Assembly: GCA_000091205.1 (NCBI GenBank)
Contig: AP006492.2
DNA length: 64,000 nt
Direction: 5' to 3' (one strand)
Origin: Cyanidioschyzon merolae
Taxonomy: Eukaryota
The notes under the pieces are model-generated. The model saw only the letters and a program-made list of their open reading frames with translations, searched no databases and was not told where the DNA came from. Below are positions 10,843 through 59,749 of the stretch, piece after piece (within the stretch, counting starts at the first letter, position 1; every line of letters starts with the position of its first letter). Both the position numbers and the translations under genes were made by a program.

Positions 10843-13052
10843 AGTGCACGCTGGAAGACGTGAACCAGCATGCTGGTTTTGTTCTTGTCTGGTTTTCTCC
10901 CCGGTATTCAATTAAAGTCTAGTGTTCTGTGGATTGGAGAAAGTTCGCGGAAGGAGTTGATGCCGCCATGATTAGCTTGCGAGAACAACGACCTTCGTTG
11001 TTCAAGCCACGCTTTCTACGGTCAGCCAGTGAATGAACTGCCCTTGTCGTAGTGCTTAGTGTAGACAGAGCGCACCCGAAACGCAGCTTGTCGAATACGA
11101 TCTACACGATTGTCTCTTCGTCAGTGCATTCCAATCCATTTGCTGTCTAAGAAAAACGATTAGAGTATACACAGGATGTGAAAGCTCCGCACCACTGATT
11201 CGAACGGTGATGAAGAGTCGCAAATGGACAAGGACAAAAGTGCGCGTCTACGGGAGATCGTCACTTGCTGAACGTCACAGAATGGATTTCGCACTGAAAT
11301 GCGAATGCTCTCAACAGGAGGTATGGGAGCTCTTCATTTTCGGTGAGACTTGCCTAGGGAAATGCTAGCCTTGAATACCGGTACCTAACACGGGAAAGAC
11401 CGCTGTTCGTCAAGCAGAGGCAAGCGAGCGTGACGACAACACCAGCCCTAACAACGATTTTATGGTGTGTTCGCCTACGAATTGTTGCAAGGGCTGAATT
11501 GTTCAACACCGCATTCTTCGTTGACGCGCTTTGTGACTTGTGCTCGCCAGATTCTTGTGTCTTGTTCGTAGATACCATGGACTATGATCACTCAAATGCG
11601 CTGAAGCGGTTCGCATTAGCGATTCGTGTTGAGCAGTTCTTCGTGCTAGCATCTTCTCCCTAGTTCAATCGAGTCCGAGGCGTGTTCTCCTTTTCGAATG
11701 CCATATTCAAGCTCATGCTTCTATGGATGAGTCATTCGTATCTGTGATACGGTTTTTCGACGAACCCCTCTGCGTCGACTGGTTCTACACATTCACCTGC
11801 CGTGCATTGCAGTGCTGGTTCGCTGCTCGTACGCGGGAGAAAGCGGAACGGCGCGCTTCGGTCCACGGACGTGGTCGAGCCGGACCAGGTGACGAAAAGG
11901 TAGTTGAGGAATGGGAGAAACAAACGAAGAACAGGCGAGTTTCAGTGTCCACGTCTACGTATTGGATCTGAATACTGCGGAATAAAGGATACGGAGTAGT
12001 GCGTTAGTATCCATGCTAGCCCGCCAAGTCATGAGAAGGCGAGGAAACTCCTGAACAAAGAAGAGAAAAATCCTCGCGAAACGACACCAAGCAAAGATCG
12101 ACAGGAGGAACGGTTTACGCGGAAACAATACCCTGAAATCACTGTCGAGGCCTGCCTAACAAAACTCCTCACCAGGAATAATTTCTCAAAAAGTGCAGTG
12201 CAAGACGCCAGTGGGGATCACGTCGCTCTATACTCGAGAATGTCGTGCCTGGCTCCGCTCGCGAGGACGCACCGCATCAAGCAGTTGCTTGTAGGAGTTC
12301 CGGTGTCGGAACAGCTGGCTACCGACCTTCCTCTCGCATACCTAGACCAAACCAGCATGCGACAACACAGCTGATGCTCCAGACAGAAGACGACATACCG
12401 CATGATCGTCGGATTAGAGCGTCGCACACATACACACTTCCCAGAATACCTGGAGGCATTGGCGCGACACGTCGGTAACCGGAGTGTCTACAGAGCAGGT
12501 GCCCAAAAGCATCATACCAGCCTCATAAACCATATGCTGGTCACCGTCGATTGGTTCGTGCAGCGTACACTGGAGGCGTTGCGCGCTCAACGTACTGTCC
12601 CAGCTAAGTTGGGACTGATAAACGGCATTCGCGGAGTATCGATGACGGTCAACGACGAGCTGGTGACTGCGGAGACGATCGAGGAGCTCGCGAGTACGGA
12701 ACAGATGTCGCAGTGGAAGCGAGTTCGCTTCCGATCGTCCAAGCTCATGGCGTTGCTCTCGGAATCGGGTACACGGAACTCGTATCCGAAGCATGTTTGA
12801 AACGGGATACATGCCTTTTTCGAATACTGCGCTTCTGAGATTTCCTGCACTGAGCGCTCCTAAGCAAAGCAGACTTGGTTCCTGGATTCGAGCACCCAAC
12901 TTCCTCGGGGATCTATTCGATGTATTTCCCATACGACACATCGAGACCCAGTACATCTCCGCAGACAATGTTGTCCTGTGCTGATTGGCCTCCTCAGTGG
13001 GCTACCACTGGTCTCTGCACACAAGTATGAAGCACTCGAACGTCTTCACCAA
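10843..13052 (+). repeat. Left copy of an approximately 2.2 kb inverted repeat (IR-L)
   Basis: The reverse complement of 57541-59749 matches at roughly 99.5%. The mirrored small ORFs in the track differ by only 1-4 aa. Boundaries were read by eye: the outer end diverges just before gcagtgcacgctggaagacgtgaacc, the inner end just after cgtcttcaccaa. A perfect 16-bp palindrome aaccagcatgctggtt lies about 20 bp inside the outer end. Confidence 0.85.
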
Positions 13053-14135
13053 GGGCAGAAGCGGGGCTCGTTCCTGTGCAATTGCCATCCATGAGTTCAA
13101 GATAATTCACATAAATCACGGGCACTAGTGTACACAGAAACTGGTATGGACCGGGAGAATGAAACAGAGATGGATTCACGAGGTGGGTTACGAGAAGCTG
13201 ATCGGACGCCAGACGGAGAAGCTCCTCCCCGTGGGACGCTTACTTTGGCGTGACTCAATGAGCAAAAATGCACGCAAGCATTTGCTGCACAAAGCTTGAA
13301 CGCCTTGGTCAACATCAGGCAATGTCCTGTGATCCAGTAGCGCCCAGCTGTTTCGTGTCCAGCGAATTTTCCCGAACATCGTCTTGCTCCCTGCGTGGGC
13401 AACCTGTTAAAACGCTAAACACTTGTGATAAGAAAATCACTGCCAACGAGACACAGAATTGCATTACCGCCTGGAACAAGGCACTGGTAGTCTACCGTTC
13501 AGCTGTCCGAACAGACCGGAGCGCCTTATCCATACATCGTGAACGGTTTTCATCGGCAATCGATGAACAAATAGGGTAGTCCACGACTAGACATTTCTGC
13601 GCATCTGGTGCGCTCCGTTCAAGATGACACGACACCTATCGTGACGCAAGCGCCCCCAGCGGTACCTGGGTAGGCACCACGCGATCACTGAGAGTGTACG
13701 TCGCAGCCTCTTCCGCGGCATGCGCAGGTCGCAGCGCCCGCCCGTATATCTACGCGATGCTCCTCGGAGTCTGCCTAATCAGATCGCGCAGCGTCATCAG
13801 AGGCGCTGTCAGTAAAAACCGAAACAGGTTACCTAAAACATATTGCATGCTGCGACTTATGGTAAAGATGTGCGCAGTGACGGCTGGATACCTGCTCTCC
13901 TGGGGCCGATGCAACCAGGAGTCACGTCCCCTGGCGGGCAGACGCGAAGCCGCTTCAACGGCTGGCGTAGAGCCTGCCGCCCCGCCCGCATTCGATGTCG
14001 ATATGCCGTAGACGGAGGCGCGCTGCCTACGATTACTACTACTACTACGCTGGGCAACGAGAGCGGGTGTTCGCGGGGCGGTTTGCACTGGACGCTCGTG
14101 TGTTCCCTGAGCGTTACTCTGGAGTCAGCAGGATC

Positions 14136-15707
14136 ATGTCCGGTAAACTGGCGGTGAAAACAGCAGAAGCGCTTCGAAATATCACGCGCGTTCGGTCGCT
14201 CCGGGAGCCGCTGTGGAGTCCGCGCACCACCGCCGCTTTGCAAGGTGTAAACGCCTCCTTGAACTGGTCGCTCGCCCGACATGATGCTGCACCTGTTGGC
14301 GTGGAATACGTCTACAGGAACCTCCGCGCAAAGAATCTGGTCTCACACTGCATAGAGCGCTATGGGTCAGCGTATACAAGTGCGCTTGTTGCGCATGGGA
14401 ACGCAGAGCGGCCTGCCGGCACGCTGCAGCTCCTCCCGCCAGCTGCGTCACGTCGCACGCATCAAGCGCTAGTCGCGGATTACTTATGTAGGGGTGGCGA
14501 TGCTTTCACGTCATCATCTTGGAAATCAAAGCTTTACGTCTTAGACGGGGCTTTTGGCTCAGATCTGGAGACGTGCCTGGCGAGTCGAGTGGTTTGCGAC
14601 GACCCTGTCGTTGCGCTTGCGCTCACGCACTGGATGGAGCGTCTTCCGGCGGGCGCTCTGGATCTGAATGTATTCAGCCCTGATATCGTGGTCTATATAG
14701 GTGCTGGCTATCATGGTCGGTTCGAGGAGAACTCCGGCAAGAACGGAATATCTTCCTCGCCGCCAAGAGACAAGGCGTCAGCAACACGAGCACCTGATGG
14801 GAACGCTTCGCCAGGCCTTGCGCATGTAACAACTGATGGACAACGTGTCTATATTGGCGCGAGCGTGCAGCTCAATCACATGCGAAGCGCTATCGGCGCC
14901 GCTGCTTCTCTAGCAATGCTCTCCACCCGACGGGGTATCGATCCGGAGCGATATGGACTGATCCTTAATGGGCAGCTCCACTCCAATGGTCGCGCTGTTT
15001 TGGGCGTCGACGGCCAGCACGTCATGTGGACGCATCGAGGACTTGCGCGAGGCTGGCGCGATGTTCTGCGTCTGGAAGACTGGCGGTCTAGCGTGCCGCC
15101 TCCGAAAGTAACGCAGCGACAGTGGCAGCAACGGGTTGCGTTCCCGTCGGGCGATGCCTCCGGTGACACTGCGATGAAGAGCAGCAGCGCATCAGCCATC
15201 GCACCGCTACGCGTCCCGTCCACGCCGAATCTTGTTCTGGAGTCGCCGCTGTTTTTGATCGCACTTGATCACGGAGGTGTGCGGCGATCAAGTTCCGATA
15301 CAAGTAAGAGAAAACGAAAGACCGTACAGAATGCAGAACAGCAACAGCAGGCGCAATCTGAGCCCGATGAGAATCGAGTGCAGGTGGTGCCTCTGAAGAA
15401 CCCACAAACGGCAGCGTTGTATGCGCTTGCCGTGGCGACTTTTCCGGTCCCGGAGAATCTTCTCGAGATCAGTGTTCGGGATTTCGTGGCAGCTTACGAG
15501 CGCGCGAATGCCCGAGCGTTGCTCGTATGCGGCACTGGAGCGACGTCCCATGTATTACAGCTGGCTGCGGACTCCGCGACACCGAGTATCACTGGCGAAG
15601 CAGTTCCTGGAGTGCTGCAGGAGTATGCCCGGCAGTGCATCCTTGACAGGTATCGCCAGGTAGGTCAGCAGCTGCTTGCCCAAGACGGCCCGCTTGCGGC
15701 AGCTTAA
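14136..15707 (+). CDS. Hypothetical protein (no recognisable domain)
   Basis: 570-codon ORF (13995-15707), which is far too long to be chance at this GC. No family recognised. The first 47 codons include a (TAC)5 microsatellite encoding YYYYY, so I prefer the second in-frame ATG at 14136 as the start. Confidence 0.35.
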   Translation: MSGKLAVKTAEALRNITRVRSLREPLWSPRTTAALQGVNASLNWSLARHDAAPVGVEYVYRNLRAKNLVSHCIERYGSAYTSALVAHGNAERPAGTLQLLPPAASRRTHQALVADYLCRGGDAFTSSSWKSKLYVLDGAFGSDLETCLASRVVCDDPVVALALTHWMERLPAGALDLNVFSPDIVVYIGAGYHGRFEENSGKNGISSSPPRDKASATRAPDGNASPGLAHVTTDGQRVYIGASVQLNHMRSAIGAAASLAMLSTRRGIDPERYGLILNGQLHSNGRAVLGVDGQHVMWTHRGLARGWRDVLRLEDWRSSVPPPKVTQRQWQQRVAFPSGDASGDTAMKSSSASAIAPLRVPSTPNLVLESPLFLIALDHGGVRRSSSDTSKRKRKTVQNAEQQQQAQSEPDENRVQVVPLKNPQTAALYALAVATFPVPENLLEISVRDFVAAYERANARALLVCGTGATSHVLQLAADSATPSITGEAVPGVLQEYARQCILDRYRQVGQQLLAQDGPLAAA

Positions 15708-18700
15708 AGTTCCGCAGTCTTAGGCAGCGCCTTGTCGCGGAATGTGCAAGCAACGTATATTCAGCACTGCTTTAGACTCGATTGCATCTACTTGCACACG
15801 AGCAGTAAACCCCGAAGAAACGCATGCGCTGTTGTGTCGAAGCACGTTGCCATAGCGTCCGTTTGGTCAGCGCTCCAAAATTGCTGTATTTTCATTCGCC
15901 TACGCCACAATGGCGGTAGCACTGCTTATCATGGTACTGGACACTACCGGCTGCAGCTGCGGTTTGGCGGGAGTCGTGTATGGGTCGCGGCGGGCCTGGG
16001 TACCGTCCGAGCGCTCTGGCGTTGCCGGCCGCTTTCCTTGACAGACGTAGGGGTAGCGCTTGGATGCAATCAACTCGTTTCATGTTCCGGAGGCAGCCAT
16101 GTATCGCTTTCGCCTGAGCGAAGACGGATGAGCGGTATGCGTGGGAAGCCTTGCTCGTTTCGCTCGATAGTGGACCTGTGTGCGAAATCGACAGCTAGCG
16201 TACGGAATGTGTGTGTGTTTGCTTTTGTGGCGGGCGGGGTTATTCAATAGCTTCTTTGCATGCAAGCTTGTATCCTTGTCTCCGGCGTTTGATCATTGTT
16301 GACTTGCCTGTCCGCTTTTCTGCAAGCATTCAAAGCGTCGGCAGCGGCGGATAACCCGCTGCCTAAAGAGACTCGATCGGCCTATCCTGGGGCCTGCTAT
16401 CTGCACTGCACCGATGATGGGTACTCGGCTCGGCATGGCGTCGGGATCACCTGCACCAGGATGCTTCCTGATTGGGGCAGTTCGGGGCCCCATTTTACGA
16501 CAGCGACACCGTAAAGTTTCCATACGCATGTCAGTCTGAAATGGAACGGTTCCGCTCAGTCAACACAGGAGCATTCGCTCAAGTTCGTGCCTCTTCGTAT
16601 TGCGATCTACACGAGCCTCTGCGAATTTTCATTTGACTGCTTCATTTCCAACTGTCTTGTCTCCGGCTTTCAATAAGAGAGTCTCTTCTGTCTCTGCAGA
16701 TCCGCGACAGGCAGTCCAAGCATGTTGACAGCAGCGTTAAAGTCCGGATTTCACTGCTTCCTGCTGTTGTGGACGAATTCCATGCACAGGCAAAAGCGGC
16801 GATCTATGCTTCGCTTGCCCCGTTCATCTCCTGCGGATGCAGTCTCGATGCGTTTTTCGCAGCGATCACATTTGGCAGTGGTGAGATATCACCTCCTCGG
16901 CTGAGCGCTGTCCTGTGAAGCGTGATCGCGGGCTTGATCGCTCACTGTATGCCCTTGATGACTAGAAAAGGCTCCCGTCGACCCCCACTTGTGTTTCCCG
17001 CCCCATACCGTACCCAAAAACCAAGCGCGGCATGAGGACGATCCCCTGAGCGAGTTCTATGTTCGCTGCGCGCGCTGTGTCATTCGATCGAGGAATTTTG
17101 AGACTATGAAACTTTCCATGATGAAAACTATGGTCAGAAGAACCAGGTTTAAGAGCAAGTTGAGGGATTCGATCCGCCGACGCGCTTCTCGTGCTAAACG
17201 ATGGCGTACTCTTCACCGAAAACCATCGCTACGACAAGCAAGGTCCGAGTCCAGGGATATTTTCCATGCAACTGTAAGAGACAGGGGTCTCTGCGAGCGT
17301 ATCGTCTCAGAGACGTCATGCTAGAGTCTAGAGCCATCTTGTCCATGGCCACGAAGAGAGAAGGATTCGTCATTGGAACGGAATTGGATATTCGACGTGT
17401 CAAGTTCAGCAAACAATTGGCATGAGCTATTGAAGAGGTCTTCAAACTACGATGTTGTGTTTTGGTTGGTCGCCAATCCAGAAGCGCGAATGGCTGTGCT
17501 GACGTGTTGCTTTGAAACATAATGATTGAAAGTTTGAACCTTGCATGATTTGGGGATGCTGCTCTTACGGAAAGGATAAGCGTGCAGACTTGTTGGTATG
17601 CATTACATATTGATAGAGGTTCTTCTACGAGACCTTGTTCTAGGGCACCGCGAATCATGCTGAAGACCATTCCATAAAAAGTTCTAGTGGTAAGGCGTCG
17701 AAGGAGTAACTTTCGAAAGACGCATGAGAATCCAGGGACCGTCTATGGATCTGGAAGCCCGCATCGCTGCATTTCGAATATCGAGACTGAACATCTGAAA
17801 CTTCGAAAAAATCGCAAGGTAGGAATATATAAACCAGGTCAGTGTTCCATTTGCAACTATAGACGGTGACTATAACGGAAAACGTTCTACGGTCATGGAG
17901 GATAAACTGGTATCCCTTCACGGGCACCCCGCACCAGCCTTTTCTTGACCGGCCACCTGCCATCGTTTTTAGTTTCTCCTTGCACACGTCGAGCCGGAGC
18001 GCGTGCTCTGTGAAGTTGGATCGCGTCAGCTACGCAGGCCTCTCTTTCAGCACTGCACATTTTTCTGACACTGAGGGCGGCGTTGAAGTCACGGTTCACG
18101 AGCTCCATGTGATTATCGACAATGATGGAAGTCGTCAGTGCAAGTATTGCCAGAACTTTTCCCCTCTGTGCCGTATGCTGCTCTGTCAGAACCCCGTTCC
18201 TTTCTATCGCCGAAGCGCTCCGTTGCGTTTTCCATCTCAACCTTTTGATTCTTTATTTTTGAAAATGAACGTATTTTTATGCCCTGTTTGAGGACCTTGT
18301 TGGAGGGATTAGAACTTTCGGAAGGAAGACGAAAGATGCACTGGTTTTACCGTGTGCTGAACGCTTCAGCGATTCGCCCAGTACAGCGATCAATTCTTTT
18401 CAGGATTGCAAAGACACCTGCAATGGAGTTCAACCACGGAGCGTGCTGCGGCATGAAAAGCAGCTCTACGCGGTAGAATCGAAAAAAGCTCGAACTCAAC
18501 GGGAATAGTCAAATGCCACGTTGTCCAGTAGGAGGATATCGCCACCGGTCTGGGGAGACCCTTCAATGATTCGACAAAGTGGGTGCTGTTTTATGATCCT
18601 TGTCTCAAGCGAAACTGAGGCCGCCAAATCATTCCACTGCAGCTAGAAAAGATGATGATGTCCTCGTTCTCTTCTACATCGATTGTACCCACAACTTGCT

Positions 18701-19306
18701 CCCTGCTCGGCGAATACTCATGTACGCTCCGACCGTTTCGTCGGATGCAAGTCTCATCGACTCAAAGAACAGACCGACGTCGCCGTGCTCCCTACAGATC
18801 GCCGAGTTCCAGAAAGTTTTTCATGGGTGCCGTTTCGGTGGAAGATGGCCGTGCGTGAACTAGAAGTTTTATTGGGACTGTCTCCCAGTGTTTCCCGGAC
18901 AACACGAACAAACTTTAGAGAAACAGAGCTGCTCGTAGTTGCAACAATCGTCGCTTTTGCTTTCCTTTTGGTGATCAACGAGTCGTTTTCTACCATTGAT
19001 CGCAAGCACGCTTTGAGAATACCAGTTTTGACGCAGAGCGCATCCACTTGTTTCTTTCAGTGTTCTGCAACCATCTGAGTACTGTGGTATGATTGATCTG
19101 GACGAGGAATGCAGTCCTCGTTGCACTGTTCAGTAAAGAATATACCGTATTGGCAATTCGTCTACGACCTATACAGTACCTTGCATATTGATGTCGATCT
19201 CCTGGTATATATTGCACCGGGAGTGTACAAAAATTAACGTGAAAAACTATACCATTCGAAGATCACACACTTCCTACCAACAACCCGGGAAACGCATACA
19301 CTGAAG

Positions 19307-23693: not shown

Positions 23694-24212
23694 ATGCAGT
23701 GCCCTAGCATCACGTGCTTCTTCAGGGCAATCCATTTGACAAGTACTGTGACTTGTTTTACAAGCAAGCGCACGCACTTTCATTCGATAAATGATTTTTG
23801 GGGCGCTATCTTACCCGCGATGCAGCGAGCACCGAAACGAAAATCCAGATTTCAAACCGAGTCCAGCAATTTCGATCCCTCTACGCTCCCTTTGTGGAAA
23901 GCGGTGACGCGAGCTCAAAAAAAAAAAGATGTTGCTGCGATGATGGAAATTCGAGCCCAAGACGATTTCCTGCTAGAGCTGCGTCGGAAGCCTCTGGACG
24001 CACGTTCCGCGAGAGATGTGGTGCTGCAGTCGAATGCAGTTGCATCCATGACTGCAAAGCGAGGAAGATTTGTCACGACAAGATCGGTGAATCTTCGGCA
24101 TGAGCTTATGCGGAAGTTGTCAAGCGACGACGCTGAGCTTTTTGTTGTCAATCCAGCGGCTCGACATGCTGTGCCCAAGAGTTGCCTTGAACCAGACGGA
24201 TTGAATACTTGA
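23694..24212 (+). CDS. Hypothetical small basic protein
   Basis: 172-aa ORF. The internal Met at MQRAPKRKSRF gives a lysine/arginine-rich roughly 130-aa product. No recognised domain. It overlaps an antisense ORF of similar size. Confidence 0.15.
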   Translation: MQCPSITCFFRAIHLTSTVTCFTSKRTHFHSINDFWGAILPAMQRAPKRKSRFQTESSNFDPSTLPLWKAVTRAQKKKDVAAMMEIRAQDDFLLELRRKPLDARSARDVVLQSNAVASMTAKRGRFVTTRSVNLRHELMRKLSSDDAELFVVNPAARHAVPKSCLEPDGLNT

Positions 24213-24807
24213 AGAATGCATAGTTTTAGCACACTACGCATAAGAAAACGATAAGCTAGGAGGTTTCTACGTTTGCATTGGATAATGCAATGGGTTAATT
24301 TACGAGCCCTTGCTCGAGTGCGTCGCGAATCATCCTGACACCGGTGACGTAACGAATGCCAGCGGCAGACAGTCGAGGGCGCCACTCCGAAAACACGACC
24401 GAGAACCCTAAATCGACTAGTGAACCCCTGCATCCTTTTTGCTGCGTTTGGAATGTCAGGACGATATCTCGAAAACAAAATCAGAAAGTAATCGCTGCGC
24501 ACACACGAAACAAGGCGTTCCGTGCTCCACGGGCTCATCGGATACGGACGGCAGGCATCCGCAGACGCGCGCGACCGTCTGCGTCTCCTGAGAGACGCGC
24601 ACGCGCATCAATGCAATGCCCTCTGCGAAGCTGCCCGCGAAACGCACTATCCAGGGCGGCAGCGATGATGCTTGCGCGCCGGGCAACATCACCGCCGCCG
24701 CCGCCGGCATGCGTGCGCCCTCCCAGGCGCGCACCTACACGTGAAATCAGGTCAGGCGCACTGCATCGACGCTGGACGACGACGTCACCCGCTTGCCCGC
24801 ATTCGAG

Positions 24808-27481: not shown

Positions 27482-27483
<2 letters not shown>

Positions 27484-27524
<41 letters not shown>

Positions 27525-37835: not shown

Positions 37836-40800
37836 TGCCCTCCGGGGTGTACCAAGTGTTCGCCCGGCAGGGCAACCGGCCTCGCGTTCGACCCATAGAC
37901 TCACAGGGCGCTCGTCGGCAACGAGCTCCGGCAGAGAGGTTTACGAACGTTGCATCCATAGACGCTCTGGGAACCCTACTGACCCTTTATGAATCGAAGT
38001 AGACTCTTGGGCGTTGCAACGCCGCGCTGGACCCAGAACTTCTGCATCAGGCTGTGGTGCCGTGCTTCGTGCCAGGGGTACCGATGATACCGTCCGAGGC
38101 ACGAAAGCCGAGTGCAAGTATCGCGTATTTAGGGCATTCGCATTCAATGCTCTGTGAACGTACTCAGACTCGTGCAACGTTGCACGGCCGTCCATCGCAA
38201 TGGGAGATGTGTATGCATGTATACGTGTCTATGTGCGCTTCGTTTACAAGCAACTGCACACAAGCCGCCCGCTAGCTGAGCAGGTCGACGCGATCGCTCT
38301 TCGAATCCTGAGTAACTTCATACAATGAAACACGATGATCGTCTACCAAATGCTCGAGAAAACTGTCCCCAGTGTTCGTATAAGGCGGTCCAGTCTTTGC
38401 GTTTTGCTGCAGCGTACCGTAACTGTGCCTTGCCCAAGGCGAGCATCCAACACATCCTCGACTGGCTACTGATTTTTTTCATCGAAAGTCTTGATCATTC
38501 CAGCTCAATTCCCACACTGAGGATGAAGCGATCCGTATGAAATTCCGCTTGACACAGTGCCGCTGGACGCTCCCAAAAGCGCGAGATATGCCCGGATGTT
38601 GATCGAGCCGCTCAAGTATCTGTGCACAAGGCACTGGCGCTTTTTCTTGTTGGTGGAATCACACCATAGCACGCCGCTCCCCGTACATCAATTCATACAT
38701 CGGTCTCTGTTCCACGCTCTGCGTTTCTATCTGTTTCAGCGGACACCTACGCTCGTTGTAGGTCTATGTCGCATTGAAAGCACCGATCGGAATCGTATCG
38801 AATCGTATCCTGCGATCGCTGTATGCTCTCGTCGAAGGATAACGAGCGCAGCCTTGGCGCGCTGCAGCACGTCCAGCGCCATAGGCTCCTATCAAATAAC
38901 ATGCCTTTTAGGCCAGTTCCTTTTCCACCACATGGAGCAAGTTATCGAATTTACGCTTCTTGTCTCTTTCGAAATGAAACCGTTGGTGATCCCAGCACGC
39001 TCTCATGCAGCCCCGCCAAAGATCGTCTGTCTCGGCCATTTCGACGCTCACGGACGGTCTCTTGCGTAGGATCTCTCCCACAAGTCACGATTTCAGGTCT
39101 AGAAAAGTGATGTTACAACGTGCACAGGGTGCGCTCCATGATGCGCTGGAGAATGACCCGTATACGCTTTTGTTTTTTGAGGTTGTTTTGATACCTGTTG
39201 GTACCTGCGCTATGGATTTTTTTCGACCAACAACGTCCCGCGGCTGCACTTCGAGATATTCCACAAACCATGTATGTAAATCTCCGATCCTGTGATCAAG
39301 CTGTTGTGCGTCTTACATTTCGCGCATCCGTTGTGTTGGCGCGGGAAAGCTTCATCGAAATATGGCAGAGGAATTTGGATAGCTGGCAGCCCCGCGGCTA
39401 TAACCCCTACCAACAGTTGCTCGACGATGTGCACCAAGGCGAGGGACGTCAGGCGAGCCTTCCTCAAAGAAGAAGCTACGCGATACCTGTTGGCGTCCTG
39501 CATTTCACTTTTTGTAAGACCTTCCCGTTCATGAGTTTTTGTCGCGAGGCCGTGATAGCGTTTTCATTCTGAACTTTCCCCACCAAGAGCGTTTTCTTCT
39601 GGTCATATCTTGACCTGTTTTCGGAAGAATCGTTTCTTTTATTGGCCTATGCTCTTGATCTTCATCTTTACTTGGTCGGGTGGCATGTATTTAGGCGCCA
39701 TCCTCCACTTCCGATCTTTCCTCGGAACTGAGGCACACTGGGTACATGGTAGCACTGACAAACGCCTTTTGTGCGGTAACGTCTGCGGCATCTTACGCAT
39801 CTTTTCGTCAGATGCTTCGCGAGCATGCCTTCGAGTCAAAGCACGTCTTTTCGCTGGCTCCCGCGCACGGGCAGCGGGGCAACACGGCAGTTCGCGGTTG
39901 GGAAAGTGGTAGAAATCGACCATGAAAAGAACGAATTGCGAAGGAGTCATGAACTCGAATGTCTCTTCCATTGAACCGCGAGTGTAAATACCGCATTCGA
40001 CAATGGAGCGAAGACGCATTCGGCAGGGTCAACCAGGGAGAACAGACTGGCACGAAGCGTAGCTGAACGCCAATTTCAACTGCGTATTCCCTGACAGCTT
40101 TGGTGTCAAGGTAATCGTTGTTTCATTGGAGCAGAAGAACGGAATTCGAGAGGGCAATTTCCCGAAATGCCTCGATGAATGATGCAATGAGGAACGATCT
40201 AGTCCACTACGTGATTTGCAGGCGACCACATTATAGTATTGGTGCTAGGGCTGACGTCGTCGTCAGGCTCGTTTGTCTCTTCTTGACGAACTGCGGTTTC
40301 ACCCTCTTGGAATGCTCATTCGCAGATCAACCATGTGGTCCGGGCCGAGACTTACCGAGTGAGGCGAATACGCTTCCCTCCTGTAACAGGAGTTCACGTT
40401 CCAGTGCGGATTCGGTCGTGTGTTGTTCAACGCGATACGGTGTCCAAGAGAGGTGTGTTTTTCTCTTTGTACGTATGTGTCTTTTCATGACATTTCGTAT
40501 CATGGGCGCGCAAACTTCACATTCTGAGCTTCTCAGGTATTATGTCTTAGTGACAAAACCGCGTGTAAGGTACTGGCGAGGAGACTGTCTTATCGATAGA
40601 GTCTAAGTTCCAATTTGAGTGCACGATGTTCCGAATGACGATTACCATGAAGGGTACTTGATCCACCTTTCGACCGCAGAGTATCTGATATATCGAAGCA
40701 AGGCCGCTTTGTCGCAAGGTAGCAGTAGCGGCATAAACTTTTTCCGCATCCTTGCTCCGATCTACAGGATGCATTCCTTTTACTGCGAATCTGTACGAAG

Positions 40801-41358
40801 AGCGAACGAAAACAAAAAGGGCGCGCAGGTGCGGGTGTTCCCGGATTCACTGTTCTGAGTATATCGAGTCATGCAATACATTGTCGATATCATCTGCTTT
40901 GACAGCGCTTGCTCGGCCGACTGGTATCCGACGTCATCTCAGAGTAGAAACATAGGTCGCAAAGACGCCTGGTACAATACTGGTCGCCCCGGCGGACACG
41001 CATCCATGCAAACCGCGCTTCCGCAGTGTACGGTCAGCAGCAGCAGCAGCAGCACCCAGGCGTCGTCGCTATCACTGCCGCTACTGATCGAGTCGCTACG
41101 GCCGCAGCTGGAGCCATGGCTCCTCCGATAACTGCGCCTGCTTCTCGGAGCAACATGTCAGCGCCTCCAGTCCATAAACAATACCGTGTGACCAGAACAA
41201 CGAGCTACACGATTCAGCGCCTCAGTGAGGGATCAGGACACCCTCGTGAGCGCGTCTTGATACATTGTGGGCCCACGACAGCTGCCAGCGATAGCCGTGG
41301 TGTTTTCCATATTTCTGCACTGGCGTTGACGATGCAGTGCTTCCTTCAGTGTCGCTCA

Positions 41359-50900: not shown

Positions 50901-50933
<33 letters not shown>

Positions 50934-50937
50934 GTCA
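50901..50937. repeat. (CAG)n microsatellite
   Basis: gcagcagcagcagcagcagcagcagcagaagcag, about 400 bp upstream of the TauE-family gene. Confidence 0.8.
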
Positions 50938-51330
50938 AGCTACAAACCTGCGACAAGACGTTTGCGGGCAGAAGACCAGGTCGCTCAACACGCGCAGCGC
51001 GCTTTGCTCTCGTAGCACGAAGCGTCCGCACGTCCAACAGAGCCACTCGCAACGCCCAGTCGGTACCAGCAACCACGGATATACGTTCCAGCCGCTCTCC
51101 AGAGCGTTTCACGTCACCTGCGATGCAGTACGCCCTTGCCCCAGAGCATCGACGCTTCGTTGATCCAACGAATTTTCTGCGTGCGTGCGAGCCAGCAAGC
51201 GGCGCCTTCACAACATCGCCCCGTGCCTGCGCGCTCGTGCTGCGCAGGTATCCGCAGCGAATCTCAGGCCGCCGAATCGATCGACCTGATGGCGATGCAG
51301 GTACCGCCGCCGCCGCTGCGCTACAGATAC

Positions 51331-51457
51331 AGGCGCGCACACACACACGCTGAGACGTAGGCGCGCGCACACACACACACACGCTGAGACGTAGGCGCGC
51401 GCACACACACACACACGCTGAGACGTAGGCGCGCACACACACACACGCTGAGACGTA
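51331..51457. repeat. Minisatellite, 4 units of about 30 bp (aggcgcgc(gc)(ac)n gctgagacgt)
   Basis: Four head-to-tail units, each containing a (CA)5-8 core and the constant block gctgagacgtaggcgcgc. The array ends about 30 bp before the track ORF start and about 200 bp before the preferred ATG of the TauE gene. Confidence 0.85.
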
Positions 51458-51654
51458 GGCGCGCGCGTGCCTATTTTGCGACACATGCCATGGCTGTGGC
51501 ACGCGTAGCGGCTGCGCATGGCTGCCCTGGCTGCACACAGCGCTGCACCCGGCCTGGCAACGAATCGCAACAGGATCGGATTGGGTCTGTGCGCGCTATC
51601 ATTGATGTGCAGCGTGCGGTTACGTCTGCAAGCTTGCGTAGCTGTTTCGGGAAC

Positions 51655-54069
51655 ATGACGCAAGCAGGGACTTTAACTCGAAACAAACCAAAGGTTCGAC
51701 GTTGGCTACCTGTTACTGTTTGCCTCTTGCTTGTGCTGCTGCTGCTGCTGGGCGCAACACAACCAGCCGCCGCGGTGAACGCGTGCGACTACTGTGACGC
51801 GGTGGGTAAGGCGTGTAACGCCACGCTGGGCAAGTGCTACCGGTGTACGAGCTCCAAGGACTGTCCATCACGCAAAATATGTAACGTCGATATCGGTCAG
51901 TGTATAGTGGGAGGTGTTTTTTCAAACTTTGACTGGCAGGAGGGCGTTCTCATCTTGCTGGTATTTCTGGCGGCAGGGGTGTCGAACGCTGGGGGCGTAG
52001 GTGGCGGCCTCCTCTTCGTGCCGTTGCTGGTGCTGCTAGCCTCGTTTCCTATACCGCAGGCGAGTGCGAACTCACAGTCTCTGATCCTGGGTGCGTCTAT
52101 TGCGAACTCTGTGTACAACTTCCGGAAGCGGCACGTCATCCGCGACGCACCGCGCATCGACTGGAACTTGGTGATCAGCACGATGCCTTTCTTTCTCTGC
52201 GGCACAACGCCGGGATATTTTCTGAATATTTCGCTTCCCGGCTATTTCACGGGTTTCGTTTTGGCTGCGATGCTGGGAGCGCTCACCATCCAGAGCTTTC
52301 TCTCGGGTACGCGCATGACTCGCCGCCAATGGAGAATGCGACGCGAGTTTTTGCGCCAGGAGGCAGCAGGCAGCGCTCCGCTTGACGGCCCTGCAGCATC
52401 CAAACCGACTGCACCGACTGCGAGCGACGGTACCTCCGTCGTGCAACCCGGCATGCAACCAACGTCTACTGCGGTCGGCGAAGAGCGCCTGGATATCGAC
52501 TCGATCACTTCGCGTTTGCCGGGTCACCAGGATGGGTCTGCCCGCGACGGGGCATCGACAGCGTCGCTTGCTGGAGGAACACAACCGGGGAATGTGGAAG
52601 CTGGCGCTGTGAACATCCAGCACGACGTTGCTGGTTCTGGAAGCAGCAGCGGCCAGCAGCACGACCCGCAACTGGGCGAGCCTAGTCATCGGGCAGCGTC
52701 GCAAACGACGTTGACCGAGTCGACGGGAGCGAACGTCGTTCTGGCTTCATCTCAAGGCGATGTGCATCCGTCTGTCTTAGCATCGAATGCAACAGTAGCA
52801 GCAGCAGCAGAAGCACGTGGACCTGTGCATGCGCCGGAAGAGTTGCTACCTGCAGCGGGCGCTCTTCCTGAACAGAGACGCGACTTGGATCCATTGCCGA
52901 GATCTGTGCTTCAAGAGCGACTTGGACACGCGGCAGTGGACGGCCACCTGACGCACCGGAGTGACCGCAATGAACGCACGGCCATTTGGGTGGGCATGAA
53001 ACGCTCGGTCTCCTGCCAAGAGGAGGAGCTCGTCGGACGTCAGCACCGCAGCCGTGACGACTCCACGACATCCTGTTTACCTATGCGCGTGCGTGGTCGA
53101 CACTCGTGTTCGGGCGTGCTGCGTACCGCCTCACTCTACGAAGACCTGGCAGGGCTGTATACAGTCCATGTTGATGAGCCTTCGCCTCGCTCCAGATCCA
53201 AACTCGCAAGCGCCGAGCGTTCCGGCAGTTTCGTGGACCAACAGGCCGGCTCTTTCGAGTCAACTTCCAAACTGTATCGAGTTTGGCGTTTCGTGGACCC
53301 GGTTCTCGCGAGTCGAAACCTGGAAGAAATGCTTGCGGCAGAGCGTCCATGGTTTCCCTGGCGTCACATTCTGTTCGTTGTCATCCTCATCGCCATTCTC
53401 TTTGCAGGGCAGTTTCTCTCAGGGGCACCCTATGCCCGGTCACCGGTCGGTGTCCCGCTGTGCGGTGCTGTGTACTGGGTCATTTTCATGCTCCAAGAGC
53501 TGTCTCTGTTTGTCATTGGGCTGCTTACTGTATTCCGCAACATTCGGTTGCGACGGCTTCGCGCTGCCTACGGATACCCCTGGTTCGAGCATGACGGACT
53601 CACGGATATGCGCTGGGACGGTATGAACCTCTACGTCTATCCGGCATTTGTGCTGGTGATCGGCGCCATTGACTCGTGGACGGGTCTGAGCAGCAGCGCC
53701 CTCATCATCCCTTACCTCTACTTGATCGCGCGCACTGACCTCGTTACCGTCCAGTCGTCGATGGCTATTGTGAATCTGGTCGCGAGTCTGGCTGCCGCCA
53801 TGGTCTTCCTTGTTGACGGCCGCTTGAACATAAGCTACTCTTTGTTCTACGGGCTCTGGGCAATGTTGGGCAGTTACAGCGGTGTGTTCTTCGTTTACTA
53901 TCTCGTGGATCGCTTTCAGATCCGAGCATTCATCATTCTGGCTATTTCCATTGCTTTTTTTGCGGCATTTGCGATCGTACTATACGAGGCGGTCCATAAT
54001 GTGCTCGCAGCACGGGCAGCAAACGCCGGCTGGAAAATGGTGAACATCTGTGTGCCGACGTACCTGTAG
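51655..54069 (+). CDS. TauE/SafE (DUF81) family membrane permease with Cys-rich N-terminal domain and long disordered central region
   Basis: The ATG at 51655 gives a signal peptide (WLPVTVCLLLVLLLLLGATQPAAAVNA) followed by an 8-Cys module (CDYCDAVGKACNATLGKCYRCTSSKDCPSRKICNVDIGQC). The first TauE half then follows (GVSNAGGVGGGLLFVPLLVLLASFPIPQASANSQSLILGASIANSVYN), then about 330 aa of Ser/Ala/Gly-rich linker, then the second TauE half (ALIIPYLYLIARTDLVTVQSSMAIVNLVASLAAAMVFLVDG ... GLWAMLGSYSGVFFV). The track ORF starts at 51490. Confidence 0.7.
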   Translation: MTQAGTLTRNKPKVRRWLPVTVCLLLVLLLLLGATQPAAAVNACDYCDAVGKACNATLGKCYRCTSSKDCPSRKICNVDIGQCIVGGVFSNFDWQEGVLILLVFLAAGVSNAGGVGGGLLFVPLLVLLASFPIPQASANSQSLILGASIANSVYNFRKRHVIRDAPRIDWNLVISTMPFFLCGTTPGYFLNISLPGYFTGFVLAAMLGALTIQSFLSGTRMTRRQWRMRREFLRQEAAGSAPLDGPAASKPTAPTASDGTSVVQPGMQPTSTAVGEERLDIDSITSRLPGHQDGSARDGASTASLAGGTQPGNVEAGAVNIQHDVAGSGSSSGQQHDPQLGEPSHRAASQTTLTESTGANVVLASSQGDVHPSVLASNATVAAAAEARGPVHAPEELLPAAGALPEQRRDLDPLPRSVLQERLGHAAVDGHLTHRSDRNERTAIWVGMKRSVSCQEEELVGRQHRSRDDSTTSCLPMRVRGRHSCSGVLRTASLYEDLAGLYTVHVDEPSPRSRSKLASAERSGSFVDQQAGSFESTSKLYRVWRFVDPVLASRNLEEMLAAERPWFPWRHILFVVILIAILFAGQFLSGAPYARSPVGVPLCGAVYWVIFMLQELSLFVIGLLTVFRNIRLRRLRAAYGYPWFEHDGLTDMRWDGMNLYVYPAFVLVIGAIDSWTGLSSSALIIPYLYLIARTDLVTVQSSMAIVNLVASLAAAMVFLVDGRLNISYSLFYGLWAMLGSYSGVFFVYYLVDRFQIRAFIILAISIAFFAAFAIVLYEAVHNVLAARAANAGWKMVNICVPTYL

Positions 54070-54549
54070 TATTTCATGAACGAACTAGTCGAAACATGAC
54101 CATGGCAGGTGCGCGCGTCGAGCGCCATTCAAGCAGAGAGCGCTTCGCTGGTGCAGGCGTCGCCCGAGGTCGCCAGCGAGCCAGTGATGCATCTGAACGA
54201 GCGGCAAACTGGCGTGCTTGTCAAGTCGAGCACAACGCTGCCTCTGTCGCATGCACCAGCGGCTGCGTCACATGCATCGTGCGTAGCGGTCTGCAGCTTT
54301 CTCTTCCAAGAAGCTGGATGCGAGTCGAGGCACTCCGGAATAGATGCATCCCCAAGCCGCGCTCGTGACGCGCTGACAATCATGATTTCAGTGCAGTCCG
54401 AGTACAACAGTGCGCGCTCGAGTTGCACTCGGTGCGCTCGACATGGATCCAGTGTCGTCTGCGGATGCTACACCAGTGTCAGGTTGAAATGGAGCGCTGA
54501 ACCACGAGAAGTAATCTAGCATTTCGATAGTCCTCACTCAAATTTGAGA

Positions 54550-55050
54550 TCTGGAGCATCGGCATTCGGAGTGCAACAATAAGGGCTCACGGATTCGTGC
54601 GCAGTATCGGGATAGCCGGCTGTTGGTTTTTCGGACTGTCTTCTTCGACGCTTTAAAGCTGAAAGTCGTAGTGTCTGCGGAATCAACGTCATTCGCGATA
54701 TGATCTTGGACAAGGCTTCGTAATATCACTGATATTATGATCCAGTGCGTCCATACAAGAATCTATTCTTCTAATTCCATTACGAGTAGCATGCATAAAT
54801 GACACATGCTTCCAGGTTTTCGACGACCATTCCATTTCATGGGCAATGCATGAGCGCTGCGATTCGTGTCCCAGTACTGATGATGACGACAAGAACTCGG
54901 TTTCTTCCATTGAAGATTTGATAAGACGTTCATGCCGAAAGTGCACTGAACTTGTTACGTGAAAGAATCGATTCCGCTCGACTGGCGTATCCTGCACGGT
55001 TTGTCGTCAGTTATGAAACAATAGTCGAAAGTACCATGATGCATCTCACG
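54550..55050 (+). repeat. Dispersed repeat family B, copy 2
   Basis: See copy 1 (48170-48655). It lies in the lower-GC block downstream of the TauE gene stop. Confidence 0.55.
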
Positions 55051-57540
55051 GGACGTGATCTCAGAGGCAACCGTCTCCGCTGTTTGCATGGAAAGAGGGC
55101 GTGGACGCGGACTTTGGTTATCGCATCGATACCCTTCAGTGAAGCGTGTGTCAATGCATCGCACGAAGGAAGCGCAGTCAAATCGTAAGCTCTCGACTTT
55201 TTCTCCATCCTGGATTTTTTTGCTTCTAGTGCCAGTCTCATCCTAAACGAACGATGTGTGCCGCAAATGCCCTATAGAATGGAGAAGTATGCACTCGTGC
55301 GTACGGCGGACAGCGCACTCCCCAGGCGGTATCGCTCAGCAGTAGTCCGTCATCGTAGGGTGCGGCACCGAGCCCGGATACGGAGAAGTCATCAAGAACG
55401 AGCCCTTTGTATCTCTCAGCGGCAAATCTTGTGAGCGATGAAGAAAAGCCTCACGCGCCACAGTGCGGCGCTCGGACGAGGATATGTGGCGGATGCGTCT
55501 AGAAAACACTGACCATCGTCATGTTTTTCTGCTGCTGCAATCGGCGCTCCGAGGCTGCATCAATGCAATATGACGTGGCAAGCGAAGCGTGAGTCGCAAC
55601 GATATGCTTTGCATGAAATGAGTCAACATTTGCCTCACGCGGTGAAATTGGAATTGTCTTGTTCTCGTCAACGTCTTGCAACTGCTTATAACGTAGCGGG
55701 AGGAGAAACAAAACTCGCTGTATCGAGAGCGGAGCACAAGAGAGCGAGAACGAAAGCAAACATCCGCCAAGACTAGTATTGAATGATAGCGGTTGTCGAC
55801 CCAAACTTTGGTATCTAGTTCGGAATTAGCTGGGCTGGACCTGTTCCCTTCAAGTCTGGCATAAAGCCGTAACCGGATACGCTGTGCGAGCGTTCTTGCG
55901 CCTGCCATGGACAACCTCGAAGGGCGTCCACATCACCACAATCCTCCGAATAAACGAAGCATGTCTTGTTGGCGCACAGTGCGAAACCTTCATGATATTT
56001 TGCTCCGCAGCGAATTTGACCCAGCTGAAGTGCATGGATAGCCCTAGAGGCGTCGGCAACAAGATGCACGTCTGCGGTTGGTTCGCTGCTCCAAGTCCAG
56101 CAGCGTCTGGGCACGTTCTTTTGCAGTTGCGTATTCTGCTCGAGCGCCCGACACTCATGCAGCGCTCGGGGTTATTGTCGATGCTTCGTGACCAACGGCG
56201 CTTTCCTTACCAGACTGGCGCATCCGCTGCGGTATGATATCCAGGTAAATGGCAGCGACATTCGAGTAGCAACGCACGATTTGCAAAGCCGCTTTCGGAA
56301 TCATCTCGATTATATTCGATAATGGAACACCATTGTCGATCATTGATCGACCGGGGAAATGGTAAGCGGTGTGTGTGTGTGTGTGTATGTATTGGTGCGG
56401 GGCTTTAGCGTTGCTCCTTTGCTGAGCATACCATGCCAATGTTCCGCTCCAGACGAGAATTCAGTGTCACTTCTCCTGGCCTCTGATTCGTTTTCTTGCA
56501 AGTCTGTAGCGTTCCAGTGCGATGCCTCTAGTGAGTCACCTACGATGTCCTGGAACATTCGCGCACCTCAGAGCAGTTGGACGCGGCGGAAGCGCGACAA
56601 GCGGTAGCATAGTATTCGGGGCGTTCAAGCCTCGGTGCAGATTGTGCTAGCGCAAAGTTTTCCCGGGAAATAACACACGAGAGCGAGCATCATACCCTGG
56701 ATGACCTTGTCATGTGATGTTCTGTCAGTGAATTGTCGAACATGTCGCGCATTCGCCTCTGTTTCAAATGTTGCTTGTCTACCGATTTCAGAGAGCACCT
56801 GTGCCCATGTTGCGTGTTTGTCGTCCGGAATGCATCGATGCGAGAACTGGACCATCGAGGCTGGCGCTGGTTGCGCGGTCTCCTCGACACAGAGGGTGTG
56901 TAGTCATCGCGCGCTACAGCACATCCAGCCCCGCAGGATACCACCAAATGATGCGACTTGTCGGTGAGATCCTTTTCCAACTCATTAAAATCGTCGGTGG
57001 ATGCACGCTTCTTGTCTCCGTGCAACCGCAACTTGTGCTACTCTGGCGCGGTCTCAGGTATTTCAGCCAAACATCGTTGATACGAGTTATTTGGACGGTC
57101 CTGTAAGCTCCCTGAATGAAGCGTAGAGAGCGACGCCATCCGTGCTGGAAACGGTGCTGAGAGCTTCGAGGTGCCGCCTGATACCTGTATTCCAGTTATT
57201 GGCACGCCGTTTGGTGCTCACGATTCCTGACTTGCGATAATACCCATTCCTGAAGAAGCTGAGAAGTTTCATCTGATTTCCGTTCAGGTCTCCGGCGCCG
57301 TGCTTTTGATTCAGAGTTATGGCGACGGACAAGACGTCCTTCGACAAGGGATCCACATTCATCACGGGGTACTCCTGCTCAGTTACCTTGAAATGTTAGA
57401 CATGCGTCCGTCGGTCGGCTCTGGTCTAGGTATCACGGAATGCATGCAGATTGATATTCCGTCCGACTCCATCGTACCTGTAAACTTCTTTGCTTTTCTC
57501 ACTATGAAGAAGATTCCTTGAAGGAGTTCCTCTAATGCCG

Positions 57541-59749
57541 TTGGTGAAGACGTTCGAGTGCTTCATACTTGTGTGCAGAGACCAGTGGTAGCCCACTGAG
57601 GAGGCCAATCAGCACAGGACAACATTGTCTGCGGAGTTGTACTGGGTCTCGATGTGCCGTATGGGAAATACATCGAATAGATCCCCGAGGAAGTTGGGCG
57701 CTCGAATCCAGGAACCAAGTCTGCTTTGCTTAGGAGCGCTCAGTGCAGGGAATCTCAGAAGCGCAGTATTCGAAAAAGGCATGTATCCCGTTTCAAACAT
57801 GCTTCGGATACGAGTTCCGTGTACTTGATTCCGAGAGCAACGCCATGAGCTTGGACGATCGGAAGCGAACTCGCTTCCACTGCGACATCTGTTCCGTACT
57901 CGCGAGCTCCTCGATCGTCTCCGCAGTCACCAGCTCGTCGTTGACCGTCATCGATACTCCGCGAATGCCGTTTATCAGTCCCAACTTAACTGGGACAGTA
58001 CGTTGAGCGCGCAACGCCTCCAGTGTACGCTGCACGAACCAATCGACGGTGACCAGCATATGGTTTATGAGGCTGGTATGATGCTTTTGGGCACCTGCTC
58101 TGTAGACACTCCGGTTACCGACGTGTCGCGCCAATGCCTCCAGGTATTCTGGGAAGTGTGTATGTGTGCGACGCTCTAATCCGACGATCATGCGGTATGT
58201 CGTCTTCTGTCTGGAGCATCAGCTGTGTTGTCGCATGCTGGTTTGGTCTAGGTATGCGAGAGGAAGGTCGGTAGCCAGCTGTTCCGACACCGGAACTCCT
58301 ACAAGCAACTGCTTGATGCGGTGCGTCCTCGCGAGCGGAGCCAGGCACGACATTCTCGAGTATAGAGCGACGTGATCCCCACTGGCGTCTTGCATTGCAC
58401 TTTTTGAGAAATTATTCCTGGTGAGGAGTTTTGTTAGGCAGGCCTCGACAGTGATTTCAGAGTACTGTTTCCGCGTAAACCGTTCCTCCTGTCGATCTTT
58501 GCTTGGTGTCGTTTCGCGAGGATTTTTCTCTTCTTTGTTCAGGAGTTTCCTCGCCTTCTCATGACTTGGCGGGCTAGCATGGATACTAACGCACTACTCC
58601 GTATCCTTTATTCCGCAGTATTCAGATCCAATACGTAGACGTGGACACTGAAACTCGCCTGTTCTTCGTTTGTTTCTCCCATTCCTCAACTACCTCTTCG
58701 TCACCTGGTCCGGGTCGACCACGTCCGTGGACCGAAGCGCGCCGTTCCGCTTTCTCCCGCGTACGAGCAGCGAACCAGCACTGCAATGCACGGCAGGTGA
58801 ATGTGTAGAACCAGTCGACGCAGAGGGGTTCGTCGAAAAACCGTATCACAGATACGAATGACTCATCCATAGAAGCATGAGCTTGAATATGGCATTCGAA
58901 AAGGAGAACACGCCTCGGACTCGATTGAACTAGGGAGAAGATGCTAGCACGAAGAAGTGCTCAACACGAATCGCTGATGCGAACCGCTTCAGCGCATTTG
59001 AGTGATCGGAGTCCATGGTATCTACGAACAAGACACAAGAATCTGGCGAGCACAAGTCACAAAGCGCGTCAACGAAGAATGCGGTGTTGAACAATTCAGC
59101 CCTTGCAACAATTCGTAGGCGAACACACCATAAAATCGTTGTTTGGGCTGGTGTTGTCGTCACGCTCGCTTGCCTCTGCTTGACGAACAGCGGTCTTTCC
59201 CGTGTTAGGTACCGGTATTCAAGGCTAGCATTTCCCTAGGCAAGTCTCACCGAAAATGAAGAGCTCCCATACCTCCTGTTGAGAGCATTCGCATTTCAGT
59301 GCGAAATCCATTCTGTGACGTTCAGCAAGTGACGATCTCCCGTAGACGCGCACTTTTGTCTTTGTCCATTTGCGACTCTTCATCACCGTTCGAATCAGTG
59401 GTGCAGAGCTTTCACATCCTGTGTATTCTCTAATCGTTTTTCTTAGACAGCAAATGGATTGGAATGCACTGACGAAGAGACAATCGTGTAGATCGTATTC
59501 GACAAGCTGCGTTTCGGGTGCGCTCTGTCTACACTAAGCACTACGACAAGGGCAGTTCATTCACTGGCTGACCGTAGAAAGCGTGGCTTGAACAACGAAG
59601 GTCGTTGTTCTCGCAAGCTAATCATGGCGGCATCAACTCCTTCCGCGAACTTTCTCCAATCCACAGAACACTAGACTTTAATTGAATACCGGGGAGAAAA
59701 CCAGACAAGAACAAAACCAGCATGCTGGTTCACGTCTTCCAGCGTGCAC
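57541..59749 (-). repeat. Right copy of the approximately 2.2 kb inverted repeat (IR-R)
   Basis: Reverse complement of 10843-13052. All small track ORFs in IR-L reappear here on the opposite strand with 0-4 aa differences (for example 11430-11663 versus 58930-59163, and 12402-12800 versus 57793-58191). The outer end lies 102 bp downstream of the NDUFV1 stop. Confidence 0.85.

Follow-up and report, generated by a model that had tools for sequence, protein, structure and literature searches.

Two nearly identical copies of a sequence of about 2.2 kb, lying in opposite orientations, bracket a 44.5-kb block of genes in the analysed window, a 64-kb stretch of Cyanidioschyzon merolae 10D chromosome 10 in which CMJ168C and CCDC25 match the 10D proteins with 100% identity. 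With a probability of about three in four for the reading as a whole, each arm is a copy of a discrete, dispersed, non-coding element, inserted once the lineage of C. merolae had separated from Cyanidiococcus, and the pair was produced by a comparatively late copying event and is subject to gene conversion between its members. The arms are an ordinary pair of dispersed repeats evolving in concert, and there is no sign of a purpose-built inversion switch.

The repeat pair and its element

Across the 64-kb window a repeat search found a single long repeat, namely the inverted pair 10829-13073 and 57520-59764. The high-identity core was determined by base-by-base mirroring, in which position p was paired with 70593-p. 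The left arm (10843-13052, + strand, taken as forward) and the right arm (57541-59750, - strand) were reverse complements over 2210 bp with 0 indels and 20 substitutions (14 transitions and 6 transversions), giving 99.1% identity. The inverted pair of about 2.2 kb noticed in the first-pass annotation is thus real and its left coordinates are exact; the right end given there, 59749, was 1 bp short, and near-identity was confirmed while the figures of about 99.5% and about 10 substitutions were not. The left arm reads 5'-AGTGCACGCTGG ... CTTCACCAA-3' at its termini. The arm edges were sharp, with identity dropping straight to background just beyond both of them, and local alignment of the 400-bp flanks scored no better than shuffles. 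The possibility that the arms were the converted core of longer old elements was ruled out, since no homology extended past the edges, either between the arms or between the arms and the third copy described below. The arms were mildly AT-richer than the DNA around them: 2-kb windows over the arms had about 51.5% GC, and neighbouring ones about 54-56%.

Outside the left arm lies the gene for a CCDC25/NFACT-R protein (BAM80291.1; 9817-10494, + strand; PF05670; 225/225 residues identical to the 10D protein), whose stop at 10494 is 349 bp from the arm, and outside the right arm that for NDUFV1, the 51-kDa subunit of complex I (59851-61338, - strand; PF01512, PF10589), whose stop at 59851 is 101 bp away, in keeping with the distance of about 100-350 bp from the stops of convergent genes proposed earlier. 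On the inner sides, CYME_CMJ168C (BAM80292.1; 14136-15707, + strand; 523/523 residues identical, and named from cluster members) starts about 1.1 kb from the left arm, and a TauE/SafE family protein gene (BAM80307.1; 51655-54069, + strand; PF01925; cluster including BAM80307.1, 804 aa) stops 3.5 kb from the right arm. The block between the arms spans 44.5 kb, as first described, and holds 16 annotated genes, implied by the protein accessions BAM80292 to BAM80307, instead of about 15. Its Pfam domains were HslV-type proteasome, Dor1, CNNM/CorC, glycerol kinase, OTU, SET/Rubisco-LSMT-like, NYN, DPH5-type methylase, pentapeptide and TauE, which agreed with the gene content named before (HslV, glycerol kinase, DPH5, SET, NYN, CorC and TauE).

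A third, strongly diverged copy of the element was detected inside the block by blastn, tblastx and alignment (about 38650-40851, - strand), which brings the copies in the window to three. Its homology was firm from about 39109 to 40850 and uncertain in the 3' quarter. The blastn HSPs with the arm were collinear, with 64-79% identity and a best E value of 4e-14, and collinear tblastx HSPs spanned arm positions 2-1725. Identity was about 0.6 over the first ~1750 bp and then about 0.4, so that the copy as a whole is about 55-60% identical with a 3' end that cannot be placed, and equal length or a common 3' terminus with the arms is not established. The homology begins at arm position 2, which is the outer terminus of the arm. 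A fourth, distant relative was found as an ORF, P0051, on a different contig. As these other family members are old and diverged, the arm pair probably goes back to a comparatively late copying event. Of the two explanations offered by the first-pass annotation, the one that took the arms as two opposite-orientation copies of a 2.2-kb non-coding element was essentially right, given the third copy and the absence of the element at orthologous sites.

The element looks non-coding, as had been supposed. No ORF in the arm exceeded 184 aa, and the longest stop-free run was equalled or surpassed by 3% of shuffles. Pfam searches of ten element ORFs from the arm and the third copy returned sub-threshold noise only, and no coding capacity for a transposase, reverse transcriptase or Rep-helicase was recognisable. 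The 184-aa ORF matched nothing but itself in a search of 5.8 billion proteins, and an exhaustive representative search returned itself and one weak match; neither this ORF nor the others were conserved when the arm and the third copy were compared. Scans of the whole window for Rfam families and tRNAs were negative, and the conserved element motif had no match in the viral contigs scanned. Neither the arm nor the third copy carried terminal inverted repeats, terminal direct repeats or LTRs, and the 3' end, CTTCACCAA, showed no poly(A) tail or CTRR end. The element therefore differs from the classical transposons (TIR DNA transposons, LTR and non-LTR elements, Helitrons) in lacking both terminal repeats and coding capacity. 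In keeping with the earlier remark that no clean target-site duplication was seen, none abutted the arm ends and none was convincing; 5-mers recurred 6-7 nt beyond the 3' edge (AAGCG on the left, AGAGG on the right), a post hoc observation, and the left one differed in most metagenome contigs.

The genome contains a published "novel interspersed repetitive element", the WSV repeat, with 253 copies of 3.2 kb on average making up about 5% of the genome and defined by a truncated ORF with weak BLASTX similarity to wsv486 of WSSV (Nozaki et al. 2007, PMC1955436). At this density one or more copies would be expected per 64 kb. Compared by description, the two resemble each other in being intergenic, kilobase-sized, without an intact ORF and outside the standard transposon classes, and the element would share the dispersal as well, with three copies in the window and one distant ORF relative on another contig; the WSV average of 3.2 kb differs from the 2.2 kb of the sharp-edged arms, but an average does not exclude a 2.2-kb member.

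Occupied sites in natural populations and empty sites in relatives

All four junctions between arms and flanks recurred in contigs that had been assembled independently, from many samples and from three sources of data. Those of the right arm with NDUFV1 and with the TauE side were seen in contigs L001-L010, L012, L014, L015 and L018, and L001 and L013 showed the orientation of the window. The exact NDUFV1 protein of the window was present on 23 metagenome contigs. Every outer-junction contig entered the element (25/25, from many metagenomes) and empty sites numbered 0; each insertion is thus fixed throughout the C. merolae-like populations sampled. Most contigs ended at the arm edges, as did nearly all of those bearing CCDC25. 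Exact look-up of the long CMJ168C ORF, the TauE ORF, the 132-aa ORF of the left arm and the annotated TauE protein gave no further junction-spanning contigs, and the metagenome scan gave a single contig, which ended inside the arm.

A collapse or misjoin in the source sequence, which had been named at the outset as what would refute the repeat, was looked for and not borne out. No point in favour of such an artefact was found, and it is hardly credible: the junctions were reproduced independently as described, the 20 differences between the arms are biased towards transitions as natural variation is, and the flanking gene order agrees with that of two related species.

The synteny comparison suggested with the first-pass annotation showed the window order without the element in these relatives. 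The spacer between CCDC25 and the CMJ168C homologue was 837 bp in Cyanidiococcus versus 3641 bp in 10D, and TauE and NDUFV1 were separated by 5781 bp in 10D but by 697 and 780 bp in Cyanidiococcus and a second cyanidiophyte, respectively. No nhmmer match to the element was obtained at either orthologous intergenic site of Cyanidiococcus yangmingshanensis or at the right-hand site of the second cyanidiophyte. The order and orientation of the flanking genes were the same as in the window on both sides, hence the 10D orientation is ancestral. The same gene order, together with the absence of the element, indicates that both arms are lineage-specific insertions, later than the split from Cyanidiococcus.

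Probable sequence exchange between the arms

The arms grouped by population and not by position. In the distance matrix, arms from one population group, whichever of the four flanks they adjoined, differed from each other at 2-12 sites, whereas 18-30 sites separated them from either 10D arm; paralogous arms within a lineage were thus closer than orthologous arms between lineages. The divergence of arms between populations, about 1.0-1.4%, was within or just below the 1.0-1.9% of purely intergenic flanks. Additionally, the same polymorphisms segregated in both arms. The alleles 10950A/10954C, 107-111 bp from the outer edge, occurred on both CCDC25-linked and NDUFV1-linked arms, and the inner haplotype CGCAATCG was common to arms joined to CMJ168C and arms joined to TauE. 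Since a metagenome contig is a consensus in which identical parts of the two arms may be merged, the argument for conversion relies mainly on sites near unique flanks; the sites of shared polymorphism all lie within ~210 bp of a unique flank. A cluster of substitutions in contig L020 (10868-10936) was considered as an unconverted arm end and more likely reflects low-quality assembly. The clustering by population and the polymorphisms common to both arms indicated ongoing gene conversion. In line with this, efficient intrachromosomal homologous recombination between repeats has been reported in C. merolae 10D (PMC13353863).

The near-identity of the arms had initially been ascribed to either recent duplication or gene conversion, and it is the second of these that the shared polymorphisms and the clustering by population favour. 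A very recent transposition or duplication acting alone would fit the 99.1% identity over the full element, the sharp boundaries on both sides and the far greater divergence of the other family members. It is nevertheless improbable, because in all populations sampled both copies are found at the same two positions, the distance between the arms is smaller than, or similar to, that between orthologous arms of different populations, and the same polymorphisms are found segregating on both arms; a divergence of 0.71%, published for the whole genomes of 10D and a Yellowstone strain, also speaks against it. Simple divergence after one duplication is insufficient in view of the shared sites, the fixation and the arm distances. 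Conversion between the arms raises in turn the question of crossovers, which accompany conversion in general recombination. These may have made real inversions of the 44.5-kb, 16-gene block, with both orientations coexisting in natural C. merolae as a segregating structural polymorphism. Contig L004 (JGI 3300050748) joins NDUFV1, arm and CMJ168C, that is, an inverted junction, and within its arm right-type alleles towards NDUFV1 give way, between 11879 and 11897, to left-type alleles towards CMJ168C, as expected of a crossover product; L003, from a different sample, carries the same arm haplotype. However, this is one contig, and the reciprocal CCDC25-arm-TauE contig was not found. L004 may be a chimera, because short-read assemblers cannot phase through sequence that the arms have in common and the break in L003, at 12842, falls just where the arm alleles diverge. 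Moreover, a published telomere-to-telomere comparison of 10D with the Yellowstone strain MS1 Ha3 reported just two rearrangements, an inversion and a translocation, which were placed on chromosomes 3 and 19; chromosome 10 had neither. That L004 is a true recombinant junction, and the inversion a natural polymorphism, is accordingly possible but less likely than not.

The stronger claim of a regulated flip-flop switch, the other alternative of the first-pass annotation, was not supported. Flip-flop inversion between inverted repeats is known from plastid inverted-repeat isomers and the yeast 2-micron FLP/FRT system, and mating-type inversion occurs in Ogataea and Komagataella. The arms resemble such systems in that inverted copies of ~2 kb flank an invertible segment of tens of kilobases, and a crossover would invert it without loss of genes. 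Unlike them, the C. merolae pair has no site-specific recombinase, the Pfam searches having found neither a recombinase gene nor any domain in the arms. The arms are intergenic and interchangeable, so that inversion would change the state of no gene or regulatory element and swap no gene or regulatory boundary, and no function as a switch can be seen; the second orientation comes from L004, the single and possibly chimeric contig, with no chromosome-10 inversion published for the two strains compared. The mating-type analogy was also considered and rejected: the candidate region lies between CMK076C and CMK078C, with the prefix CMK and not CMJ, and mating-type switching has not been seen in 10D according to published work.

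Proposed origin of the pair and its significance

One copy of the element lies beyond the 3' end of CCDC25 and the other beyond that of NDUFV1, both in intergenic DNA and in opposite orientation. We propose that both arrived after the split from Cyanidiococcus and arose as a pair through the late copying event. Homologous recombination in the form of non-reciprocal gene conversion would then have kept the arms nearly identical, resulting in concerted evolution. A crossover between the arms would invert the block, yet leave the neighbourhood of each gene unchanged to at least ~2.3 kb (spacer plus identical arm), since one arm can take the place of the other; such an inversion would thus be plausible as a neutral by-product and not as a designed switch. 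The arms recall the palindrome arms of sex chromosomes and plastid inverted repeats in their inverted orientation, in being closer within a genome than between populations and in their shared polymorphisms. They differ in being non-coding and only 2.2 kb long, with a 44.5-kb single-copy spacer on a haploid nuclear chromosome, and selection on their identity lacks support.

C. merolae is prized for its almost repeat-free, fully finished genome and its efficient homologous recombination. A pair of arms exchanging sequence across 44.5 kb is a natural substrate for measuring rates of gene conversion and inversion, and calls for caution when genes are targeted, reads mapped or short reads assembled in this region. 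In other respects the pair is what a dispersed repeat family ordinarily gives rise to, and no new mechanism is indicated. Should the inversion polymorphism prove true, the locus would report naturally on recombination between inverted repeats, mitotic or meiotic, in a eukaryote whose genome is among the simplest, and would locally suppress recombination when the two orientations are crossed.

Extent and gene context of the inverted pair

Self-comparison of the window revealed one inverted pair, the sole long repeat, which confirmed the inverted-repeat observation of the first-pass annotation. The arms were mirrored at single-base level (p paired with 70593-p), and a core of 2210 bp was aligned between 10843-13052 (+) and 57541-59750 (-), free of indels and differing by 20 substitutions (14 transitions and 6 transversions), corresponding to 99.1% identity. 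The arm coordinates first proposed were correct within 1 bp, and the differences were about twice as many as had been estimated. Identity fell to background at both core edges, and the 400-bp arm flanks aligned no better than shuffled sequence. In most non-10D populations (contigs L011, L013, L016, L017 and L024-L031), 10839 is C, and 10843, where the left arm begins, is C instead of A; in these populations inter-arm homology begins one base later. The candidate left 5-mer AAGCG was unconserved in most non-10D metagenome populations.

The ORFs adjoining the left arm were 100% identical to the C. merolae 10D chromosome 10 proteins BAM80291.1 (NFACT-R/CCDC25-like) and BAM80292.1 (CYME_CMJ168C). 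The distance from the CCDC25 stop to the left arm is 349 bp, and that from the NDUFV1 stop to the right arm is 101 bp. TauE corresponds to BAM80307.1, which puts 16 annotated proteins in the interval between the arms, and the housekeeping genes listed earlier were matched by Pfam. Just upstream of the TauE ORF, a 34-bp tandem repeat (51338-51466, 3.9 copies, 92% matches, CACACACACACGCTGAGACGTAGGCGCGCGCACA) was detected. A second near-identical dispersed repeat was seen in four independent contigs (L011, 1-339; L024, 1-173; L025; L026): 24119-24457, just upstream of the CNNM/CorC ORF and overlapping its start, is ~99% identical to the DNA that directly precedes the window start. These copies are in direct orientation about 24.4 kb apart; the left end of the outer copy lies beyond the sequence examined, and several contigs break inside it.

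The element and its insertion

No tRNA, Rfam family, Pfam domain, or terminal inverted or direct repeats were found in the arms, and protein searches with the longest arm ORF (184 aa) matched itself and one weak relative, the protein P0051. Sensitive blastn and tblastx with the arms masked revealed a diverged third copy inside the block at ~38650-40851 (-), collinear with arm positions 2-1725 (HSPs of 64-79% identity, best E 4e-14), whose last quarter was too divergent to be placed. Because this homology starts at the outer terminus of the arm, the outer edge is a real element end. P0051 (119 aa), from another, unrelated contig and present on contigs as long as 66,892 bp (JGI, Logan, ENA), shared 37-38% amino-acid identity with the arms, at 12471-12722, and with the third copy, at 39116-39217. 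It is probably another old family member, and it hints at further old copies elsewhere. The arms may be candidate members of the C. merolae 'WSV repeat' family, which is defined by wsv486 similarity (Nozaki et al. 2007, PMC1955436).

The spacer from CCDC25 to the CMJ168C homologue is 3641 bp in 10D and 837 bp in Cyanidiococcus yangmingshanensis (L022). That from TauE to NDUFV1 is 5781 bp in 10D, 697 bp in Cyanidiococcus yangmingshanensis (L033) and 780 bp in a second cyanidiophyte (L034), for which the spacer comparison covers this side only. In the relatives, DAGAT-Rcd1-ArfGap-CCDC25-CMJ168C homologue-HslV-Dor1-CNNM-glycerol kinase on the left, and SET-NYN-...-DPH5-pentapeptide-TauE followed by NDUFV1-AAA-HAD-MIF4G on the right, are oriented as in the window, and the element profile had no match in these orthologous loci (L022, L033 and L034). 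The matching order and orientation, together with the element-free loci, indicate that the block has its ancestral orientation in 10D and that each arm was inserted in the C. merolae lineage only. A stretch of ~3.5 kb of non-coding DNA (54070-57540) separates the TauE stop from the right arm. It has no similarity elsewhere in the window and no counterpart in the whole spacers of Cyanidiococcus and the second cyanidiophyte, and it could be another old insertion.

Concerted evolution and the question of inversion

The exact NDUFV1 protein was found on 23 metagenome contigs, and further look-ups added more. All of the outer-junction contigs (25/25) ran into the element, with no empty site; most contigs ended at an arm edge, which is the behaviour expected of a repeat present in two copies. 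Within one population group, arms on CCDC25, NDUFV1, CMJ168C or TauE flanks differed mutually at 2-12 sites, compared with 18-30 sites between them and either 10D arm. Between populations the arms diverge by ~1.0-1.4%, a level inside or slightly under the 1.0-1.9% of flanks that are purely intergenic; for comparison, a genome-wide figure of 0.71% has been published for 10D against a Yellowstone strain (PMC13353863). Alleles 10950A/10954C, located 107-111 bp inside the outer edge, occurred on CCDC25-linked and NDUFV1-linked arms alike, and the inner haplotype CGCAATCG on CMJ168C-linked and TauE-linked arms alike, these sites being near enough to unique flank for phasing by reads or k-mers. Together, these distances and shared alleles show that the two arms are not evolving independently of each other and bear the signature of inter-arm gene conversion, a better account of their near-identity than very recent insertion. 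One metagenome contig (L020) carries a dense cluster of 14 substitutions in 70 bp, mostly transversions, within the first 100 bp of its CCDC25-linked arm (counterpart of 10868-10936; also L021, 10879-10895). The L020 cluster probably reflects an error of assembly or low coverage, but it could be a divergent arm end.

Three contigs crossed a whole arm. L001 (NDUFV1-arm-TauE) and L013 (CCDC25-arm-CMJ168C) had the window orientation, and L004 (JGI 3300050748) joined NDUFV1 to CMJ168C through an arm whose outer side was right-type and whose inner side was left-type, with the switch between 11879 and 11897. The same arm haplotype was present in L003 from a different sample, but this contig breaks at 12842. 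L004 looks as a crossover product of an inversion polymorphism of the 44.5-kb block would, and as would an assembly that switched arms inside an identical stretch. No reciprocal CCDC25-arm-TauE contig was found among the contigs examined, and the T2T comparison of 10D with the Yellowstone strain MS1 Ha3 reported a single inversion together with a single reciprocal translocation, the chromosomes illustrated being 3 and 19 (PMC13353863). The polymorphism is therefore possible but unproven, and we regard it as rather unlikely.

Proposed history of the arms

Most likely, two inverted copies arose late, by the copying of a non-coding element that was then mobile or was copied ectopically. Homologous recombination of the general kind, efficient in C. 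merolae (PMC13353863), would since have repeatedly converted one arm to the sequence of the other, and occasional crossovers between them would invert the block with genes neither lost nor gained. The earlier proposal of two insertions of a non-coding element was supported, with the refinement that their identity is maintained by concerted evolution. Its alternative, a flip-flop system, was unsupported as a system, and the arms resemble organellar inverted repeats in geometry alone. Because the arms are interchangeable and intergenic, inversion would keep the neighbourhood of each gene out to at least ~2.3 kb (spacer plus identical arm); with neighbourhoods unchanged and no recombinase, nothing suggests a regulated switch. 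The feature adds a further instance to kinds already known, and its modest interest lies mainly in offering a natural substrate for recombination in a model genome.
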